Assembly: GCA_903945435.1 (NCBI GenBank)
Contig: CAJAVM010000001.1
Coordinates: 73,071 to 137,070, forward strand
Length of the DNA: 64,000 nucleotides
Direction of reading: 5' to 3'
Source of the DNA: an uncultured bacterium
GTDB lineage: Bacteria; Patescibacteriota; Patescibacteriia; Patescibacteriales; UBA12465
The notes below the pieces were generated by a model, which saw only the letters and a list, made by a program, of their open reading frames with translations, had not been told where the DNA came from and made no database searches. Of this stretch, positions 35,642 to 50,980 are shown piece by piece. How positions within the stretch are numbered: the stretch's first letter is position 1; every line of letters begins with the position of its first letter. A program made the position numbers and the translations under genes.

Positions 35642-37399
35642 TTAATCAAAATAAATAATGCCATTATTTTGATTGTAACTACCGCCAGCAAAAGAGTCAG
35701 CCTTAAATGGCTTAACAAAATTTTTAGGGGTTAGGGCAATCTTTTTAAAAACTGCCATAGTGCGACGAAGATTATTGTCCGGTCCGATATTTTTAAAAGC
35801 GATTGGTAGAAAAAAATCAGTAGAAAATATCTCCAACAAAGCCTCTGGCCCAATACGCCATAAATCAACTGGATATTCATGCTTAGGGAAACTTTTTCCA
35901 GGAACAGTAATAACGATATAGCCGCTAATTTTACAAATTCGCATCATTTCATTTAATACCTTCCAAGGACGAAAAGTGTGTTCCAAAAGCTCAAATGCCC
36001 AAACATGATCTTGGGTTTCATCATAAAAAAAGTCTGGTAAGTTCTCGGCGTCACCAACGATATTCTCTTCTTCAGGAATATACTCTAAGTCAACCTTGGA
36101 GAGTGTCGCTCCAGCATTTTTTATCATCTCCTCAAATTTAATTCGACGACTTTCTTGTAATAAACCCAACACTTCTCCGCGGGCAGAACCTAAGTTAGTA
36201 ATCAATGCTCCTTTATCAATAAGCGGAACCACTTCACTCTTAAAAAAATCAATTACATCAGGCATGCCTGGATAATCTAAATTTAATTTATCGGAAACTA
36301 TTATCCAAGGTAATTGATTCTTTGTTTCATAACAATAAATATCAAGACTAAAAATACAATTAGTTCCGCCTTTCGTGCTAACTACTTGACTCTGAAGTTC
36401 AAAACCAAGCTGCCAAAGAATTTTTTGAATACGAGAATTAGTAGTTGAAGTATTAAGCATAAGTAAAAGCTTTTTAACTTTCTGGTTTTTTAATTTTTTA
36501 ATTAAAACCGAAATTGCCTTCTCTTCAAAACCAAGCCCCATTGAACTACAAGAAAAAGTCGCATTTTCAACCGTGGCTATCTCACCCTTAATATCAACAA
36601 TAAAAGCTCCTATCAATCCCAGCGAAATTTCTTGCTGGAAAGCGGAAACGGCATACACAACCCGTCCGTTATTCAATTTAGCAAAGATAGATTCAATTAA
36701 ATTTTCTTCACTTTCGAATTGGTCAGGATTAAAATTCAGCCGATGAGTCGTAAATAGTAATTTGATTATTCTATAAAGACCCCGGGCAGGAGGAATGGCA
36801 ACGCAAATTTGTTTGCCCAAACTTTTTTGAACTTCAAAACCCAAACCGATTTGACTACGTTCTTTAATCTTTAAACGATAACGATTTTGACGAGCCCGAA
36901 TATCACTCGAAGATTCTTTGGAGCGAGAACTAACAATCTTAAGACTCTTTAACTTTACTAAGTCTTCAGGAGATAAAACGTGAATACCGGAGATAGATTC
37001 GCTAACCTCCCTTAATAGAGCTTCGTTATCATCAATGAAAACAGCTGTCTCCGGACGAATATCCGTCAGCTGTAATAACCGCTTAATATTAAGAACTTTA
37101 GGCTCCCAATTGGCAATGACCTGAGTAAAAATACTCTTATCAATCCCTAATCGGATAAAGGCTTTTTCTACGTCAGATAAATCATTTTGAGAAACAATAA
37201 AAATCTGGATTCCACGGTCATACATGAAGTTAATTAATTCATAACGATCCTGGTGCAAAGATAATCTATCTTCCTTAACAATTGTCCCCTCCCACAAGGT
37301 TTCATCTAAATCAATAAAGAGTGCCGCAATCTTTTTGGCAACTCTAACACTTAAAACATCATTTACTTTTTTCATTGTGCTGTTATTTTGGTTAAACAT
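35642..37399 (-). CDS. FkbH-like HAD (subfamily IIIC) phosphatase domain, central GNAT-like region, and C-terminal class I methyltransferase-like domain
   Basis: 585 aa. N-terminal FIDLDETLWEG ... VFIDDNEALLREV matches the FkbH/HAD-IIIC pattern (DLDNTLW ... DDNP). The C-terminus has LPDFFYDETQDHVWAFELLEHTFRPWKVLNEMMRICKISGYIVITVP (Methyltransf_11-like), but its glycine-rich loop is degenerate (NLGSARG). An alternative start is Met9 at 37375. Confidence 0.6.
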   Translation of the reverse strand: MFNQNNSTMKKVNDVLSVRVAKKIAALFIDLDETLWEGTIVKEDRLSLHQDRYELINFMYDRGIQIFIVSQNDLSDVEKAFIRLGIDKSIFTQVIANWEPKVLNIKRLLQLTDIRPETAVFIDDNEALLREVSESISGIHVLSPEDLVKLKSLKIVSSRSKESSSDIRARQNRYRLKIKERSQIGLGFEVQKSLGKQICVAIPPARGLYRIIKLLFTTHRLNFNPDQFESEENLIESIFAKLNNGRVVYAVSAFQQEISLGLIGAFIVDIKGEIATVENATFSCSSMGLGFEEKAISVLIKKLKNQKVKKLLLMLNTSTTNSRIQKILWQLGFELQSQVVSTKGGTNCIFSLDIYCYETKNQLPWIIVSDKLNLDYPGMPDVIDFFKSEVVPLIDKGALITNLGSARGEVLGLLQESRRIKFEEMIKNAGATLSKVDLEYIPEEENIVGDAENLPDFFYDETQDHVWAFELLEHTFRPWKVLNEMMRICKISGYIVITVPGKSFPKHEYPVDLWRIGPEALLEIFSTDFFLPIAFKNIGPDNNLRRTMAVFKKIALTPKNFVKPFKADSFAGGSYNQNNGIIYFD

Positions 37400-37420
37400 G
37401 AATTTTTAAAGAGCTTGTGA

Positions 37421-37449
37421 ATATTAAAACAAAAATGATAAAATGTCAA
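37421..37449 (-). promoter_or_regulatory. Near-consensus sigma70 promoter for the FkbH-like gene (TTGACA, 17-nt spacer, TAATAT)
   Basis: On the minus strand, TTGACA is the complement of 37444-37449 and TAATAT the complement of 37421-37426. Confidence 0.6.
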
Positions 37450-37484
37450 TAAAAGAGCCTCGTCGATGAATGGCGAGGCTCCTT
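37450..37484 (-). terminator. Rho-independent terminator downstream of ddl
   Basis: 8-bp GC-rich stem 37455-37462/37474-37481. On the minus strand UUUUAUU follows. Confidence 0.7.
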
Positions 37485-37504
37485 GAACAATTACCTATTA
37501 CAAT

Positions 37505-38494
37505 TTAATACCCTAATTCTATGATTTTATTTATCAATTGTTTATAGCTTAAACCCGTATCCATCATAAGCATGGGAAACATGGAGATATCGGTAAATCC
37601 AGGCAAAGTATTAATTTCATTTAAATAAATTTTTCCATCATGTAAAAAGAAGTCGATGCGGGAAAATCCTTGGCAGTTAAATAAATGATAGGCCTTAGTA
37701 GCAAGCTCTTGAACCTGTGCAATTTGCTTAGGGCTAATATCAGCCGGAATAACAGCTTGAGCCTGACCCAACTTATATTTATCCTCATAATTATAAAAAT
37801 CTTTTGCTAGCCTCAACTCACCTGGACGAGAAACTAATAAAGTCTGATTACCTAAAACCGCAACCTCTATTTCTTTTGGACTCTTTAAGCCCTGTTCAAT
37901 AACTAATTTGGAGTCGTGCTTCTTAGCTAAATTAATTGCCTTTGCCAAATCTTCAATTTTATCAACTTTAGTGATTCCAACCGATGAACCGGAATTGGCT
38001 GGTTTAACATACCAAGGCAGGGGCAAATTTTTTACTATATCACTAAGAGTATCGGCAATTTCATTTTTCGTTTGACGTTTAAAATCAACTACGCGATAGG
38101 CAACCTGATTAATTTTTGATGAACAGAGTAAATCTTTAAATACTGCCTTGTCCATACAAAGAGCCGAGCCTAACACGCGACAGCCACAATATTTAATTTT
38201 TTGACTTTCAAATATAGCCTGAAGTACACCATCCTCGCCATATTTACCATGAGTCATGAGTAAAGCGATATCAAACGTCTTCGTAAAATCTTCAATTTTT
38301 AATTGATATCCTTTCCCGACGACTAGCTTATTAATATCTTTTACTTTATAAAAAAGACTATCTTTCTTATTCCAAAAAACTAAAATCAATTCGTATTTTT
38401 TATAATCAAAATTTTTAACAACATTCTTGGCAGAAACAATTGAAACGTCTGATTCATTTCCTAGCCCACCAAAAAATAAGGCAACTTTTTTCAT
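37505..38494 (-). CDS. ddl: D-alanine--D-alanine ligase
   Basis: 329 aa. N-terminal ALFFGGLGNESDVS, an ATP-grasp core, and a C-terminal EINTLPGFT motif. Confidence 0.9.
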   Translation of the reverse strand: MKKVALFFGGLGNESDVSIVSAKNVVKNFDYKKYELILVFWNKKDSLFYKVKDINKLVVGKGYQLKIEDFTKTFDIALLMTHGKYGEDGVLQAIFESQKIKYCGCRVLGSALCMDKAVFKDLLCSSKINQVAYRVVDFKRQTKNEIADTLSDIVKNLPLPWYVKPANSGSSVGITKVDKIEDLAKAINLAKKHDSKLVIEQGLKSPKEIEVAVLGNQTLLVSRPGELRLAKDFYNYEDKYKLGQAQAVIPADISPKQIAQVQELATKAYHLFNCQGFSRIDFFLHDGKIYLNEINTLPGFTDISMFPMLMMDTGLSYKQLINKIIELGY

Positions 38495-38513
38495 ATATTT
38501 TTATTATAAATGT

Positions 38514-38522
38514 ATTTTAGCA
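38514..38522 (-). promoter_or_regulatory. Extended -10 element (TGCTAAAAT) upstream of ddl
   Basis: The complement of 38514-38522 reads TGCTAAAAT, about 20 nt upstream of the ddl ATG. The same 9-mer precedes the gene at 51122, and the KH-gene promoter has the same TGC-TAAAAT element. Confidence 0.45.
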
Positions 38523-38578
38523 AAAAATAAGTTTTATTTATACAAGGACTTCTCCATCAGCCCTGTTGATAAATCCTC

Positions 38579-38607
38579 TTGATTCTTTTTATTCTTTTAT
38601 TTAATAT
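38579..38607 (+). promoter_or_regulatory. Sigma70-type promoter at the head of the ddl-polA gap (TTGATT, 17-nt spacer, TAATAT)
   Basis: TTGATT at 38579-38584, TAATAT at 38602-38607. No annotated gene lies downstream before polA. Confidence 0.5.
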
Positions 38608-38631
38608 AACAACATACCAAAGCTACAGAAC

Positions 38632-38934
38632 ATGATGACAAAAGTGTTTTTGGTCTTGATTCTGAGTTTCGGTCCGCTCTCACAAGTTAAGTATCTGGAT
38701 ACATCCCTTAAAAGCCTCGTGCTATTACAAGCGGACTTCCAGGAAGTTGATTTTCCGGAAATAATCGGTCTTGTACCGACCATTCCCACAACACTTAACG
38801 TTGTTACTCAAGCGGCCCCACTTTTTGCCGGGGCTATACCACATCTGTTTTTTTTACTCACAGAAAAGTTGGCGTATCAAAGGCAAAAGTACGAACTCAG
38901 AGGTATAATAGAAGAGGAAATATTATACCTATGA
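38632..38934 (+). CDS. Doubtful 100-aa ORF with a hydrophobic N-terminus; the frame stays open past its TGA
   Basis: ORF-track entry. First-codon-position G is about 28%, which is coding-like. No SD, though SD motifs are rare throughout this window. It is the only ORF in the window that ends in TGA. No recognisable family. Confidence 0.25.
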   Translation: MMTKVFLVLILSFGPLSQVKYLDTSLKSLVLLQADFQEVDFPEIIGLVPTIPTTLNVVTQAAPLFAGAIPHLFFLLTEKLAYQRQKYELRGIIEEEILYL

Positions 38935-39065
38935 CAATGTTATCCTCGGATTAAAGATTTCTTTAATCGTAGTACCTTCTTAGTCTCATCAAGAGACGCA
39001 CAAAACATTATGGACCTTCAATCACAAGACAGGGTCCTGTACAAAAAACTAAAAAGCTCTAAACC

Positions 39066-39096
39066 AAAAAGCGCCGTCAACCTACGAGCGCTTTTT
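39066..39096 (+). terminator. Possible intrinsic terminator (AAAAAGCGC, 13-nt loop, GCGCTTTTT)
   Basis: Only 4 G:C pairs plus A:U pairs and a long loop, so it is weak. It lies 73 nt upstream of the polA ATG. Confidence 0.4.
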
Positions 39097-39168
39097 ACTT
39101 GGTCAAAAATAAGAAAACCCCGTTTTAGTCAAATAGAAATTCTTAAGACTATATGATAAACTAATATT

Positions 39169-41916
39169 ATGTCTAAAACTAAACCAAAACTTATTATCAT
39201 TGATGGAAATGCGATTATTCACCGCAGTTTTCATGCCCTTCCACCAACCCTCAGAACTAAGGATGGGGTTTTAGTTAATGCGGTCTATGGCTTTACCTCT
39301 TTCTTATTAAAATCCTTAAACGAGTTTCATCCGGAATATGTAATATTAACCTTAGATAAAGCTGGTAAAACTTTTAGACATGAGGCTTATGCGGAATATA
39401 AAGCGACTAGGGTTAAAGCGCCTGATGAATTATACGAACAGATTCCGCTCGTTAAACGTATCGCCGAAGTTTTTGATATCCCAATTTTTGAAAAAACTGG
39501 TTTTGAAGCCGATGATTTAATTGGAACCCTTTGCAAACAAGCGGAAAAGGAAAAAAACTTAGAAACCATTATCATGACTGGCGATATGGACACCCTCCAA
39601 CTAGTTAGCGAGAAAACAAAAGTTTATACCATGAGCCGTGGCTTATCAGATAGCGTTTTATACGATGCTGATAAAATTAAAGAGAGATATAATTTAACGC
39701 CTGAGCAAGTAATTGATTACAAAGCTTTACGTGGCGACCCAAGCGATAACATTCCTGGCGTTAGAGGAATCGGTGAAAAAACAGCAGTTGAGCTGTTAGT
39801 AGACTTCAAGGATTTAGATGGAGTATATAAAGCAGCTGAGAAAAATGATAAAAAAATAAAACCTCGAACCATAGAATTACTAACCACTTCTCGAGAAAAT
39901 GCATTTTTAAGTAAAGAATTAGCAACTATTGATTGCAATGCGCCAATTGAGCTCTCTTTGGAAAAGGCGCGTTTCGCAACTTTTAATTTAGACAAAGTTT
40001 TAAGTATATTTAGTGAATTTGAATTTAGATCACTTCTTGGAAAAGTTAAGGAGGTTCGAGATAGATTAGAGAAAGCACATCAAGGAGGCGAAGCAGGAGC
40101 GGAAGTAGTTGAACAGAAAATTGAAAAACGTCGTCAAGAAACTAATTATACTTTTATTAAAACGGAGACTGAATTTACAGATTTTTGTTTAAATTTAAGT
40201 AAGGCAAAAGAATTTGCCTTCAAAACTGAAGCTTCCGATACTAATCCTCTCACGGCCGAAATTTTAGGAATGTCATATTGTATAAAAGAAGGTGAGGCAT
40301 ATTTCGCAACTATTAATAAGGAACGTTTAGCAAAATTAAAACCTATTTTTGAAAATGAAAATATTAAAAAAACTGGTCATAATATAAAATTTGACTGGCG
40401 CATTTTAAATAAATTAGGAATCAATCTTCAGGGAATATATTTTGATGTCATGATTGCTTCATATTTACTCAATCCCGGAGAAAGGCGACATGATTTAGAT
40501 GCGCTCGCTTTTTCTGAATTAGGAATAGAAAAAATAACTTCTAAAAATATCCAAGCCGAAGAACCTAAACAATTAAGTTTAGACTTTAGCGGACCTGACC
40601 CAGAAAAATTAAGTTTATTTGCCTGTGAAAATGCTGATTTAATAAAACAATTAGAAGAGATATTAAATAAAAAATTAAAAGAACTAGAGCTAGCTGATGT
40701 TTTTAATAAAATAGAGATGCCTCTCACTTCTATTCTTGGTGAAATGGAAAATCACGGAGTGAGAATAGCAATGGCTCCTCTAAATAAGCTAGATAAAGAA
40801 GTAAAAATAAAAATTAAAAAGCTAGAAAAAGAAATTCATAAATTAGCTGGTAGTGATTTTAATATTAATTCAACCAAACAACTCAAGGAAGTTTTATTTA
40901 CTACTTTAGAAATTCCAACTGATGGTTTAAAGAAAACAAAAACCGGATTTTCAACCGCTGAAGATGAACTAGAAAAATTAAAGAACTTACATCCGATTAT
41001 TATTTTATTACAAGAATACCGAGAATTAAATAAGCTAGAAACAACTTATTTAAATGCTTTACCAAAAATGATAAATCCAGAAACCGGAAAGATTCATACT
41101 AATTTTAATCAAACGGTCGCTGCAACCGGAAGGCTTTCTTCTAATGAACCGAATTTACAAAATATTCCTACTAGAACTGAAGAGGGTAGACGAATTAGAG
41201 AGGCTTTTGTAGCTGATGATGGATATAAATTAATTGGTTTTGATTATTCGCAAATTGAACTACGTCTTGCGGCTCATATGTCTAAAGACGCTGGGATGAT
41301 AGCTGCTTTTAATTCTGGAGAAGATATTCACAGTGCAACAGCTGCGGGAATTAATGGCGTTAGCCTTAAAGAAGTTACCAAAGAAATGCGCCGCGAAGCT
41401 AAAGCGGTTAACTTTGGTATTCTATATGGACAAGGCGCACATGGCTTAAGCCAGGGGGCAGGAATTTCCTATTCTGAAGCTGGCCAATTTATTAAAAAAT
41501 ATTTTGAAACTTATCCGGGAATTAAAAAAATGATTGATGGTTTTATTAAACAGGCCCGTGAAGAAGGCTATGCAATTACCATGTTTGGACGTCGTCGTCC
41601 TTTACCTGATATGGAATCGACTATTCCCTTTGTGAAAAAAAGTGCGGAACGCATGGCAATCAATACTCCCGTTCAAGGTTCGGCAGCTGATTTAATAAAA
41701 ATGGCCATGATTCAAATTTCAGAAATGATTGGAAATAAACAGGATGAAATTCGCATGCTTTTACAAGTTCATGATGAATTGATTTTTGAAATTAAAGAGG
41801 ATAAGATACAATCTTACCTACCAAAAATAAGAGAAATCATGCAAGATGTAGTAAAATTGAAAGTTCCGATTACAGTTGATGAGCATACTGGCGATAACTG
41901 GGGCGAACTTAAATAA
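39169..41916 (+). CDS. polA: DNA polymerase I
   Basis: 915 aa. 5' nuclease domain (LIIIDGNAIIHRSFHA, GDPSDNIPGV). Pol motifs A (DYSQIELR), B (RREAKAVNFGILYG) and C (QVHDEL). The 3'-5' exo motifs are partly degenerate. Confidence 0.95.
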   Translation: MSKTKPKLIIIDGNAIIHRSFHALPPTLRTKDGVLVNAVYGFTSFLLKSLNEFHPEYVILTLDKAGKTFRHEAYAEYKATRVKAPDELYEQIPLVKRIAEVFDIPIFEKTGFEADDLIGTLCKQAEKEKNLETIIMTGDMDTLQLVSEKTKVYTMSRGLSDSVLYDADKIKERYNLTPEQVIDYKALRGDPSDNIPGVRGIGEKTAVELLVDFKDLDGVYKAAEKNDKKIKPRTIELLTTSRENAFLSKELATIDCNAPIELSLEKARFATFNLDKVLSIFSEFEFRSLLGKVKEVRDRLEKAHQGGEAGAEVVEQKIEKRRQETNYTFIKTETEFTDFCLNLSKAKEFAFKTEASDTNPLTAEILGMSYCIKEGEAYFATINKERLAKLKPIFENENIKKTGHNIKFDWRILNKLGINLQGIYFDVMIASYLLNPGERRHDLDALAFSELGIEKITSKNIQAEEPKQLSLDFSGPDPEKLSLFACENADLIKQLEEILNKKLKELELADVFNKIEMPLTSILGEMENHGVRIAMAPLNKLDKEVKIKIKKLEKEIHKLAGSDFNINSTKQLKEVLFTTLEIPTDGLKKTKTGFSTAEDELEKLKNLHPIIILLQEYRELNKLETTYLNALPKMINPETGKIHTNFNQTVAATGRLSSNEPNLQNIPTRTEEGRRIREAFVADDGYKLIGFDYSQIELRLAAHMSKDAGMIAAFNSGEDIHSATAAGINGVSLKEVTKEMRREAKAVNFGILYGQGAHGLSQGAGISYSEAGQFIKKYFETYPGIKKMIDGFIKQAREEGYAITMFGRRRPLPDMESTIPFVKKSAERMAINTPVQGSAADLIKMAMIQISEMIGNKQDEIRMLLQVHDELIFEIKEDKIQSYLPKIREIMQDVVKLKVPITVDEHTGDNWGELK

Positions 41917-50269: not shown

Positions 50270-50277
50270 GTTATAAT
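50269..50277 (+). promoter_or_regulatory. Extended -10 element TGTTATAAT upstream of trmD
   Basis: TG at 50269-50270 and TATAAT at 50272-50277, 29 nt before the trmD ATG. Confidence 0.45.
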
Positions 50278-50305
50278 AAGCAGAGATTAGAAATTAACCA
50301 AAACT

Positions 50306-50980
50306 ATGAGATTCCAAATAATTACAATTTTTCCAGATATTTTCTCGTCCTATTTCGGCGAAAGTATTTTGAAGCGGGCACAAGAAAAAAAAGTTATTGA
50401 ATTCAAAATTCATAACTTACGAGACTGGACATCCGATAATCATAAAACGGTTGATGATGCGCCTTATGGAGGCGGAGCGGGGATGTTAATGAAGATAGAG
50501 CCGTTATATAAAGCATTGAAAGATATCAACAAAAAATCAGCCAAGATTAAGACGGCTAAAAGAAAAGTAATTTTACTTTCTGCATCTGGTAAAAAATGGA
50601 ATCAAAAAATGGCCCAAAAATATTCTAAGTTTGAAGAAATAGTTTTTGTATGCGGACGCTATGAGGGAGTTGATGCTAGAATAAAAAAATTTATTGATGA
50701 AGAAATTTCTATCGGCGAATATGTTTTAACTGGTGGCGAATTACCAACAATGGTAATGATAGATTCAATTACGCGGTTGCTGCCTGGCGTGCTCGGAAAT
50801 AAAATGAGCACCATTGAAGAATCTCATTCCGAAGAAGGCTTAGCGGAATATCCGCAATACACTAGACCGGAAATATTTATTGCAGATGGAAAGAAATACC
50901 CAACACCAAAAATATTATTATCAGGAGACCATAAAAAAATCGCGGAGTGGAGAAAAAAACAACAAAAGGAGATTAAATAA
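50306..50980 (+). CDS. trmD: tRNA (guanine37-N1)-methyltransferase
   Basis: 224 aa. FQIITIFPDIF, DDAPYGGGAGM and RYEGVD motifs. Confidence 0.93.
   Translation: MRFQIITIFPDIFSSYFGESILKRAQEKKVIEFKIHNLRDWTSDNHKTVDDAPYGGGAGMLMKIEPLYKALKDINKKSAKIKTAKRKVILLSASGKKWNQKMAQKYSKFEEIVFVCGRYEGVDARIKKFIDEEISIGEYVLTGGELPTMVMIDSITRLLPGVLGNKMSTIEESHSEEGLAEYPQYTRPEIFIADGKKYPTPKILLSGDHKKIAEWRKKQQKEIK

Follow-up and report, generated by a model that had tools for sequence, protein, structure and literature searches.

A candidate small open reading frame on a structured RNA upstream of polA in Falkowbacteria-like CPR bacteria

The window, by which we mean the whole 64,000-nucleotide stretch of DNA that was analysed, carries between ddl and polA a unit of ~490 nt (roughly 38614-39100, + strand). 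With somewhat better than even confidence, we favour the reading that a small ORF in this unit is translated and that the fold of the RNA carrying it is itself selected. The unit would comprise a genuine ORF of ~100 codons (38632-38934) with a hydrophobic N-terminus and a UGA that is read as stop. The selected folds would begin with a 5' hairpin around the AUG and a two-tier hairpin, continue with a G+C-rich stem with a loop that pairs downstream (as a pseudoknot or a switch), and end with a long hairpin at the stop codon, further 3' hairpins and a terminator. In the compared genomes we see conservation of the ORF, a weak codon periodicity, covariation of base pairs, conserved promoter and terminator motifs and a constant position by polA, and these sequences suggest a unit that is transcribed, translated and functional. 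A preliminary description of the region had centred on a 176-codon frame interrupted by two TGA codons. This longer frame is not a recoded gene, and the absence of TAA and TAG in the 73 codons past the first UGA is a coincidence specific to the window's lineage.

Among Falkowbacteria-like CPR bacteria, nine sequenced lineages, the window's included, share the conserved unit, always upstream of polA, and a protein profile places it in at least 16 lineages of this group. In the window, polA (DNA polymerase I, recognised by its Pfam domains; 39169-41916, + strand) is the downstream neighbour and was used as the matched control in the selection tests; its amino-acid identity among the lineages is 76-99%. 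Between the window and lineage L001, polA has 86% nucleotide identity, showing that the two genomes are close, and the ddl of the window, with 36% amino-acid identity to that of L001, is therefore a paralogue or a replaced gene. The idea, drawn from ddl, that the genomes are very distant and the element unusually conserved was dropped in view of the polA identity. The element is single-copy in the window. Scanning a genome collection returned one locus, and a pattern scan of metagenomes yielded two chance GC-rich matches only. Viral contigs, phage records and plasmid records contained no match that would point to a mobile or phage origin.

A sigma-70-type promoter is predicted at 38579-38607 (+ strand) as an exact pattern match, with a -35 element TTGATT (38579-38584), a 17-nt spacer and a -10 element TAATAT (38602-38607), which puts the predicted start site near 38614. 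The pattern CTTGnn-17-TAATATA is conserved in 9/9 lineages. Some 7 nt upstream of the -35 element lies the motif CTGTTGATAA (38563-38572, + strand), which occupies that place in every one of the nine lineages and reads CTGTTRATAA or CTGTGAATAA in the relatives; it is possibly a regulator site. At the other end, a predicted intrinsic terminator (39066-39100, + strand; inverted repeat I6) would set the 3' end of the transcript. It consists of a stem at 39066-39096, AAAAAGCGCC-loop-GAGCGCUUUUU, followed by ACUU. A G+C-rich stem and U-run precede polA, or the next unit, in 9/9 lineages with differing stem sequences, and the G.U pairs of the terminator on the + strand favour transcription of that strand. 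Promoter-like sites on the minus strand were confined to 39148-39177 near polA, with a scan count at chance. The layout from promoter to terminator suggests one self-contained transcription unit.

The same upstream motif resembles a DnaA box on the opposite strand (TTATCAACA) and is the sole DnaA-box-like site in the gap. As one conserved site of this kind, it could belong to a DNA-level element such as an origin of replication or a region that regulates the divergent ddl and polA genes, and a minimum of cumulative GC skew near 39,300 and a switch of gene strand at the gap fit such an element as well. Nevertheless, GC skew follows gene orientation throughout the window and reverses again after 52 kb, DnaA-box-like sites occur at chance level (16 in the window vs 16.5 expected), and the compensatory changes, the asymmetry between G.U and A.C and the promoter-to-terminator layout indicate RNA. 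We therefore regard a DNA-level role as very improbable.

Base pairs of the unit are kept by compensatory changes above both permuted and slid controls, in covariation tests of 7-9 sequences of which some are closely related. We consider the RNA to be under fold selection because of these covariation counts, the same order of hairpins in independent folds, the z of the consensus fold (-3.6 for the core) and the complementarity of the strands that encode the FAG and RQK motifs described below. The first element is a 5' hairpin (38616-38673, + strand) in which the leader ACC.AAAGCU.CAGAAC pairs with GAUUCUGAGUUU.GGU in codons 6-14, enclosing the AUG at 38632. Nine independent folds gave one architecture for it (z -1.2 to -3.2). 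In L013 the codons for L-I-L-S-F carry synonymous changes that the leader compensates, and in L004 a 3-nt insertion extends the helix facing an extra C in the leader. The shared ACCAAAA leader was discarded as a sign of translation: it is also present in two real genes, the sharing is not significant, and the leader is a strand of the 5' helix.

Further into the ORF, a two-tier hairpin (38757-38786, + strand; GGAA-AUAA-UCGGU-CUUGU-ACCGA-CCA-UUCC) holds the near-invariant codons 'G46' and 'P49'. Across seven lineages, 89% of its cells are paired vs 80% after shuffling (0/500 shuffles as high), with a covariation score of 0.323 vs 0.150 (0/500); a C-G pair becomes U-A in L013 and L016, and a G-C pair of the outer stem becomes A-U. 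The G+C-rich stem S1 (38814-38835, + strand) pairs GGCCCC (38814-38819) with GGGGCU (38830-38835) around a 10-nt loop, and corresponds to the 'protein' motif x-P-x-F-A-G-x. Compensatory changes affect three of its six pairs among nine lineages (G-C/A-U, C-G/U-A and G-C/C-G), with G.U intermediates, and the amino acids flanking the motif change together in the combinations that pairing demands (Ala/Ala, Val/Thr and Thr/Val). Within the S1 loop, UUUUUGCC (38822-38829) can pair with GGCAAAAG (38882-38889) in the 'RQK' codons. This pairing, S2 (38822-38889, + strand), may form an H-type pseudoknot or else belong to an alternative fold, and 4/8 of its pairs are compensatory. For S1 and S2 together, 7 of 14 pairs are compensatory, 93% of cells are paired vs 83% shuffled (0/500) and 39-50% in slid registers, and the score is 0.393 vs 0.231 (0/500). 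The FAG and RQK motifs, the strongest conserved 'protein' motifs, are thus mutually complementary RNA strands, and GG/CC pairs underlie the near-invariant G and P residues.

The ORF ends inside a long hairpin of 13-14 bp (38897-38934, + strand; inverted repeat I2, also seen in folds) with a purine-rich loop, GAAGAGGAAA, and the TGA stop in its 3' arm. A long hairpin lies at or over the stop codon in 8/9 lineages, and a U-A pair is compensated to C-G in L013 and L016. This is probably the structure that the preliminary description had called a putative terminator hairpin, and no U-run follows it. The same description had pointed out that this hairpin and the extended frame were competing models; the competition is real, and the hairpin model prevails. 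Downstream, the 73-codon 'extension' (38935-39156, + strand) is structured 3' untranslated RNA with a codon-usage score of -0.14, its frame being kept in no relative. The consensus fold of this 3' domain from the window and L001 has a z of -9.1. Its hairpin at 38949-38968 (+ strand) is formed by GAUUAAAGA/UCUUUAAUC in the window and by GAUUGAAAC/GUUUCAAUC in L001, with two compensatory pairs in the counted 8-bp stem. By eye, the innermost pair, the ninth, shows a further compensation (A-U to C-G). L004 has a counterpart of different sequence. The hairpin at 38983-38997 (+ strand; GUCUC-AUCAA-GAGAC) has a stem conserved in the window, L010, L011, L013 and L016 with differing loops, and L004 carries GACGU/ACGUC at the same position. 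A third (39012-39037, + strand) pairs GGACC...GGUCC, for which L001 has GGACU...AGUCC, a C-G to U-A compensation.

These structures did not correspond to a known family in Rfam 15, which covers RNase P, tmRNA, SRP, 6S, riboswitches, OLE, GOLLD, ROOL and others. A search of the whole window against Rfam at the gathering threshold returned nothing in the gap, the best hit in the gap to Rfam 15 at E<=10 was PreQ1 (20.8 bits vs 39 required), and the relatives gave nothing meaningful at E<=10. ARAGORN found no tmRNA. Motifs of RNase P (CR-I/CR-V) and tmRNA were sought by eye on both strands, and both ideas were dropped. Our search of the literature on CPR non-coding RNAs found nothing specific to the unit.

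With so much structure inside the ORF, the main alternative is a pure structured non-coding RNA, in which the ~490-nt transcript acts solely as RNA and the ORF is a by-product of nucleotide conservation that appears open only through retrieval from protein databases. The ORF family would then be spurious, the kind of case that AntiFam collects, in which the translation of a conserved non-coding RNA passes for a protein family. At only ~30% identity among members, such ORFs would be expected neither to remain open with whole-codon indels nor to vary in the order position 2 < 1 < 3. The likeness to AntiFam entries is considerable: an orphan family annotated as hypothetical protein with no match to a Pfam family, conserved residues that fall on helix strands, and non-native codons. 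Covariation is strong, also inside the ORF, and the best 'protein' motifs are helix strands. Pairwise differences at codon positions 1/2/3 are nearly equal in the ORF (0.47/0.45/0.55) vs 0.16/0.09/0.47 in polA, so that ORF positions 1 and 2 diverge at the rate of polA third positions, and translated identity is 0.31-0.36 in all six frames, the ORF frame being no better. The codon-usage score of the ORF (-0.046) falls under all 162 real-gene chunks of 100 codons. Its GC3 is high (0.41 vs 0.24), as in structured RNAs of A+T-rich genomes; a rationale for G+C-rich intergenic regions has been published (PMC8632094). The stop is TGA in 5/9 lineages, in genomes that avoid TGA and whose genes almost never use it. 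AlphaFold on a 10-sequence alignment predicted no confident fold (pLDDT 50, pTM 0.18), and a paralogous '73-aa' unit lacks any coding signal.

Against a pure non-coding RNA, the ORF frame (+1) has no stop in 9/9 lineages, although the relatives were retrieved via called ORFs and this openness is therefore partly ascertained. Four of the five other frames carry 4-10 stops in the nine lineages, and the antisense frame whose third positions coincide with those of the ORF carries 0-7. By chance a frame would stay open in ~1-2% of lineages, so that 16 or more intact copies would presuppose some thousand lineages; the NCBI listing for Falkowiibacteriota has 88 taxa. An exhaustive profile search added 13 full-length ORFs to the three lineages first known, which brings the family to 16 or more members of 95-114 aa that align over their full length. 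Truncated ORF fragments were absent among the profile matches, indels between conserved blocks are whole codons only, which at ~30% identity differs from AntiFam-type families, and the AUG is conserved in all members. The synonymous changes that L013 has in its LILSF codons likewise favour a real ORF.

Codon-position variability also distinguishes the ORF from such families. In the first 55 codons, column entropy at positions 1/2/3 is 0.88/0.76/1.10 (P<0.001), that is, position 2 < 1 < 3, whatever frame anchors the alignment; from codon 56 to the end there is no periodicity. The z for amino-acid conservation is highest in frame +1 (2.35), followed by 1.5 in the third-position-coincident antisense frame and -0.3 to 0.8 in the four others. 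Per 100 codons, the z for amino-acid constraint is 2.4 vs 8.8 in polA. These values point to a codon periodicity in the first ~55 codons that is weak yet real, and to an amino-acid sequence under very weak constraint, almost free to vary. On balance, we consider a pure non-coding RNA a serious but clearly less probable explanation than a translated ORF on a selected fold.

The ATG (38632), the first TGA (38932-38934), the second TGA (39154-39156) and the TAA (39157-39159) share one frame in the letters of the window, exactly as the preliminary description had placed them, and its figure of ~28% G at codon position 1 in the first 100 codons was recovered on recomputation; polA has 33%. The TAA/TAG-free run is in fact slightly longer (38605-39159, 184 codons). 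Chance openness of the entire frame had been estimated as (0.955)^175, or ~3e-4, a figure that needs correction: the 100-codon part exceeds chance and the 73-codon extension does not. Only the extension needs a chance explanation, since random sequence is no model for a conserved ORF such as the first 100 codons. Its lack of TAA and TAG has a P of 0.011 in dinucleotide and 0.019 in mononucleotide shuffles, values that are low but post hoc. Among stretches that table 11 does not read as ORFs, the window has 18 further runs of 150 or more codons without TAA or TAG, and nearly all of them lie antisense to real genes. Where a 3' region is A-rich and structured, an absence of TAA and TAG over a long frame can mislead.

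The lead reading of the preliminary description was a UGA-recoded gene (Trp, Gly or Sec), to be abandoned if TAA or TAG stood in the orthologous frame of relatives. They do. In six of eight relatives, TAA or TAG appears within 2-43 codons of the stop: L001/L010 has three TAA (codons 4, 28 and 37) and one TAG (codon 34), and L004, L011, L012, L014 and L015 have TAA within 2-43 codons. Like the window, L013 and L016 have long TAA/TAG-free stretches past their TGA, but there the frame is a different one over the homologous nucleotides, and the indels relative to the window are not multiples of three. The downstream frame is thus broken or shifted in 8/8 relatives, which also counts against a selenoprotein gene, where the UGA would precede a SECIS hairpin and a conserved coding frame. 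What would speak for a 176-codon recoded gene, or for programmed read-through, is the extension itself, open over 73 codons at P ~0.01-0.02, and the absence of any other TGA stop in the window. The extension, however, is made up of hairpins with compensatory changes and a terminator, has no homologues and no Pfam match, and shows poor codon usage.

UGA reassignment corresponds to genetic codes 4 and 25, the latter occurring in the CPR lineages Gracilibacteria and Absconditabacteria. The window resembles such cases in that a CPR genome rarely ends genes with UGA and the ORF frame runs on past one. It differs in that none of the ~41 long real genes, which as intact table-11 ORFs take up ~91% of the window, contains an in-frame TGA, in that ARAGORN detected no tRNA with a UCA anticodon among the eight tRNAs of the window, and in the lack of conservation of the downstream frame. 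No release-factor gene lies within the window. Judged by the genes of the window, its genome does not recode UGA, and we see hardly any likelihood of a recoded or read-through gene. The attention that the preliminary description gave to TGA was nonetheless sound as an observation, since a TGA stop is exceptional in the window: 52 of its 57 ORFs of at least 50 aa end in TAA and only one, the 100-codon ORF, ends in TGA. Our search of the literature found nothing specific on UGA avoidance in the Falkowbacteria-like group.

Two other options had been offered for the long frame. One was a pseudogene, and a frame that stays open beyond a single stop might be the remnant of a longer gene that decayed through a nonsense mutation at 38932. 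The extension lacks a protein homologue and a Pfam match, though, and an intact homologue of greater length does not exist: family members have 95-114 aa, except one N-terminally over-called entry of 147 aa. One hairpin marks the position of the stop in the window, L010, L013 and L016 alike, and a decaying gene would not retain the conserved promoter, terminator and structure. We find a pseudogene as improbable as recoding. The other option, coincidence within a structured RNA, proved essentially right for the 73-codon extension.

A selected fold combined with a translated ORF would recall the dual-function bacterial RNAs SgrS/SgrT, RNAIII/delta-haemolysin and SR1/SR1P, whose ORFs have 26-43 codons and are separate from the module that base-pairs. 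The likeness is a short transcript with its own promoter and terminator and a small ORF together with selected RNA structure, all predicted here; the ORF of the present unit differs in having ~100 codons with covarying helices inside. No relationship to these RNAs was found by sequence or in Rfam. A second comparison is with type I toxins, usually <60 aa and accompanied by an antisense RNA. The hok mRNA is highly folded, with covarying long-range helices, and encodes a small hydrophobic peptide. The unit shares with hok-type mRNAs a peptide with a hydrophobic N-terminus, a start region within a conserved helix, nucleotide conservation with compensatory changes and, in some lineages, adjoining paralogous copies (the '73-aa' unit). 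It differs from type I toxins in its 95-114 codons, its chromosomal location, its synteny with polA and its single copy in the window. We rejected a type I toxin-antitoxin system: in addition to the ORF length, minus-strand promoter-like sites are at chance and the antisense ORF is not conserved, a protein search with it returning nothing new. No antisense promoter or partner RNA was identified at the unit.

The genomes of CPR/Patescibacteria are tiny, and very little of their DNA is non-coding; even so, the ~490-nt unit is retained next to polA. To our knowledge, almost no regulatory RNAs are known in this phylum, and if the unit is transcribed and translated, it is a candidate dual-function RNA. 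Selection on the fold and selection on the open frame would act on the same nucleotides. The unit is also a cautionary example for the annotation of orphan small proteins.

If a small translated ORF on a selected fold is the correct reading, the 5' hairpin may limit or gate initiation at the sequestered AUG because these genomes do not use Shine-Dalgarno sequences. An entering ribosome would have to unwind the internal helices and finish inside the stop-codon hairpin, and RNA fold and ORF translation would therefore be coupled. A more far-reaching version, which we consider improbable although less so than recoding or decay, is that structured RNAs coupled to translation form a new class in CPR, to which the unit would belong. 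The ORF would then stay open to let ribosomes pass along the RNA and remodel it, at the pseudoknot or switch (38814-38889) and at the stop hairpin, and not for the sake of its product. Because the genome otherwise does not use UGA (1/57 ORFs), the UGA could be a slow-termination or stalling site that sets the active conformation or half-life. Under the favoured reading, the product would be a small, fast-evolving and probably membrane-associated or secreted peptide with protein-level constraint in its N-terminal half only. Its hydrophobic N-terminus follows M-x-K-x-FLVLILSFGP; peptides predicted from the ORF (38632-38934, + strand) include YLDTSLK, SLVLLQADFQEVDFPEIIGLVPTIPTTLNVVTQAAPLFAGAIPHLFFLLTEK and the C-terminal GIIEEEILYL, and read-through past L100 would give W/G-QCYPR...

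The coordinates of the frame in the preliminary description were correct: ATG at 38632, TGA at 38932-38934, a second TGA at 39154-39156 and TAA at 39157-39159 all lie in a single frame. The run free of TAA and TAG begins earlier, at 38605, and so spans 184 codons. This interval fills the 674-bp gap between ddl (37505-38494, − strand) and polA (39169-41916, + strand), where G+C reaches 0.40-0.44 around 38600-38900, compared to 34% for the window. The earlier chance estimate of about 3 × 10−4 took all 175 codons as random and ignored multiple testing. The surprise it expressed holds for the first 100 codons (38632-38934), which form a conserved ORF, but not for the 73-codon extension after the first TGA (38935-39156), where shuffling yields P = 0.011-0.019 for the absence of TAA and TAG, a low but post hoc value. 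Another 18 stretches of the window that are not table-11 ORFs also go at least 150 codons without TAA or TAG, and almost all of these lie antisense to genes.

Approximately 91% of the window lies in long ORFs, all of them free of in-frame TGA; therefore, UGA is not a sense codon here. No anticodon UCA was found among the eight tRNAs of the window, which also contains no release-factor gene. The 57 non-overlapping ORFs of at least 50 aa end in TAA (52), TAG (four) or TGA (one), and this single TGA is that of the 100-codon ORF. In six of eight relatives, TAA or TAG occurs 2-43 codons after the ORF stop. In lineages L013 and L016, TAA and TAG are missing over long stretches, but the translations of these are unrelated to that of the window. 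Indels between lineages in the extension have lengths that are not multiples of three, and the reading frame across a conserved GTCTC...GAGAC hairpin differs between L013 and the window. The UGA-recoded gene proposed in the preliminary description is thus excluded on the grounds named there, as the frame after the stop is broken or shifted in relatives.

The extension scored −0.14 on the codon usage of the genome and had neither a homologue in the protein search nor a Pfam match. It is made up of hairpins at 38949-38968, 38983-38997 and 39012-39037, which retain pairing through compensatory changes, and of an intrinsic terminator (39066-39096, +). Against column shuffles, the consensus fold of this 3′ domain reaches z = −9.1. 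We conclude that no amino acid is specified by the UGA at 38932 and that 38935-39156 is structured untranslated RNA, which is common to both main readings discussed below. A sub-threshold match to the PreQ1 riboswitch aptamer at 39024-39058 (20.8 bits, 39 required; E = 0.11) overlaps a GGACC/GGUCC hairpin and an A-rich tract and was judged to be due to chance.

An indexed protein search recovered the ORF itself and two relatives. When 1.84 billion representative proteins were searched exhaustively with a profile, 13 further members emerged, nearly all 95-114 aa long and aligned end to end. Separately, eight stretches of an 817-aa protein (P0014) matched profile positions 40-74 (E = 9e-7), which may reflect a repeat protein or low complexity. 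DNA was available from nine distinct lineages (the window, L001/L010, L004 and L011-L016), giving nine nucleotide sequences that include close kin (the window with L010, and L013 with L016) and were all found via called ORFs. One of these lineages bears the name Candidatus Falkowbacteria bacterium, within the Patescibacteria group. No family in Rfam or Pfam matches the element, and searches of viral contigs, phages and plasmids did not recover it.

The element is predicted to be transcribed as a unit of its own. A predicted promoter (TTGATT-17-TAATAT, 38579-38607, +) and the terminator are conserved in all nine lineages, with a predicted transcript start about 7 nt past the promoter and a predicted end at the terminator. 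G.U pairs greatly exceed A.C pairs on the + strand, which, together with the orientation of promoter and terminator, indicates + strand transcription. About 7 nt 5′ of the −35 box, all nine lineages share the motif CTGTTRATAA, seen as CTGTTGATAA in the window (38563-38572) and as CTGTTAATAA or CTGTGAATAA at the same place in L004 and L010-L016. Its opposite strand, TTATCAACA, has one mismatch to the DnaA-box consensus TTATCCACA, and the motif could be a regulator binding site. Real genes of the window have no upstream Shine-Dalgarno sequence, only A/T-rich leaders (e.g. 39100-39168 and 50270-50305). The leaders of two of them (starts at 50306, +, and 52706, −) also contain TTAACCAAAA.

The fold also extends through the ORF. 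A 5′ hairpin (38616-38673) surrounds the AUG with identical architecture in nine independent folds (z −1.2 to −3.2). Across three lineages, the 5′ core had 94% of cells paired versus 92% when shuffled (0/500), five compensatory pairs (7/500) and a covariation of 0.137 versus 0.091 (1/500). A two-tier hairpin (38757-38786, seven lineages) was 89% paired versus 80% when shuffled (0/500), with three compensatory pairs (31/500) and a covariation score of 0.323 versus 0.150 (0/500). In all nine lineages, stem S1 (38814-38819/38830-38835) and pairing S2 of its loop (38822-38829) with 38882-38889 were 93% paired versus 83% when shuffled (0/500), with the segments concatenated and the variable linker omitted. 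Compensatory pairs numbered 7 of 14 (5/500), covariation was 0.393 versus 0.231 (0/500), and slid registers were 39-50% paired. The stop codon lies at or under a long hairpin in 8/9 lineages. The loop of this hairpin, GAAGAGGAAA (38911-38920), is invariant in four lineages and resembles a Shine-Dalgarno sequence, although the genes of this genome lack one. Within this loop, GAGGA complements a UCCUC some 25 nt further 3′ (38943-38948; window and L010), and the match might reflect an additional pseudoknot or mimicry of the anti-Shine-Dalgarno sequence of rRNA.

These helices account for the strongest apparent protein motifs, which belong to the RNA. The strands CUUUUGCC and GGCAAAAG, read as P-x-F-A-G and R-Q-K, are complementary to each other; residues on either side of P...G covary (Ala/Ala, Val/Thr, Thr/Val) precisely as pairing demands, and the near-invariant G46 and P49 are the GG/CC of a hairpin. 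In L013, all changes in the L-I-L-S-F codons are synonymous and are offset by compensation in the untranslated leader, so that coding and fold constraints are visible on identical bases.

Several measures argue against coding and fit the main rival reading, in which the RNA is purely non-coding and the ORF a by-product of ascertainment; we consider this reading possible but less likely. Among 21 matched genome pairs, differences at codon positions 1/2/3 were 0.47/0.45/0.55 in the ORF and 0.16/0.09/0.47 in polA, and an RNAcode-like z for conservative replacements per 100 codons was 2.35 and 8.8, respectively. Translations were equally identical in all six frames (0.31-0.36), and codon usage (−0.046) scored lower than all 162 100-codon chunks of real genes. 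GC3 was 0.41 versus 0.24, the stop is TGA in 5/9 lineages, and AlphaFold gave the product a pLDDT of 50 and a pTM of 0.18.

Conversely, other observations argue for coding. Frame +1 contains zero stops in 9/9 lineages, while four of the other five frames contain 4-10, and the ORF frame has the top z of all six. The AUG is conserved, the spacing between conserved blocks differs only by whole codons, and profile matches included no truncated fragments. Column variability in codons 1-55 was 0.88/0.76/1.10 at positions 1/2/3 (2 < 1 < 3, P < 0.001) whichever frame anchored the alignment; from codon 56 onwards there was no periodicity. The probability that the frame stays open by chance is about 0.09-0.19 for each close relative and would be of the order of 1-2% for diverged ones, so at least 16 intact lineages are hard to reconcile with chance, even allowing for ascertainment. 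The third-position-coincident antisense frame is likewise depleted in stops (0-7 per lineage) and forms ORFs of 62-162 aa that extend across the promoter (window 38601-38789, L010:3799-4215 and L004:134-622, all −). This frame shadows the + frame, and its ORF is not conserved in the window.

The most economical reading, towards which we therefore lean with moderate confidence, is that a small ORF is translated from an RNA whose fold is itself selected. In such an RNA, the 5′ hairpin would gate initiation at the AUG, as real genes here lack Shine-Dalgarno sequences, and the internal helices and stop-codon hairpin would couple RNA folding with translation. The closest parallels are dual-function small RNAs, among which the element would at most be a candidate, and the extensively folded mRNAs that encode type I toxins, from whose definition it departs.

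Wherever visible, the downstream gene is polA, with 76-99% amino-acid identity among lineages. In L010, L004 and L011, the element is separated from polA by the insertion of an SF1 helicase gene (AAA_11/AAA_12) and of a small paralogous unit. The region upstream of polA (window 35642-39168; L010:1-7388, L011, L013, L014) differs among lineages sharing polA. On its far side, the element is flanked by ddl and a HAD/methyltransferase gene (window, L012, L015), by alpha/beta-hydrolase and Mur ligase genes (L010, L011, L013) or by an HD-domain gene (L014). The element lies at a recombination or insertion hot spot.

The inserted small unit lies directly downstream of the element (L004:880-1330, L010:4495-4930, L011:1800-2200), is absent from the window and was called as ORFs of 73 or 51 aa. 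It shares the promoter, the ACCAAAA leader and about 70 nt of 5′ sequence with the element, and has hairpins at equivalent positions and a strong terminator of its own. It is approximately 79% identical from promoter to terminator, shows no coding signal (synonymous to non-synonymous 4:37, z −0.4) and is probably a diverged paralogue of the element. The roughly 60 nt directly 5′ of polA (TTTAGTCAAATAGAAATTC...; window 39111-39168, L010:7331-7388, L013, L016) are conserved at the nucleotide level even where the helicase intervenes, which suggests a separate promoter or leader for polA at this site.
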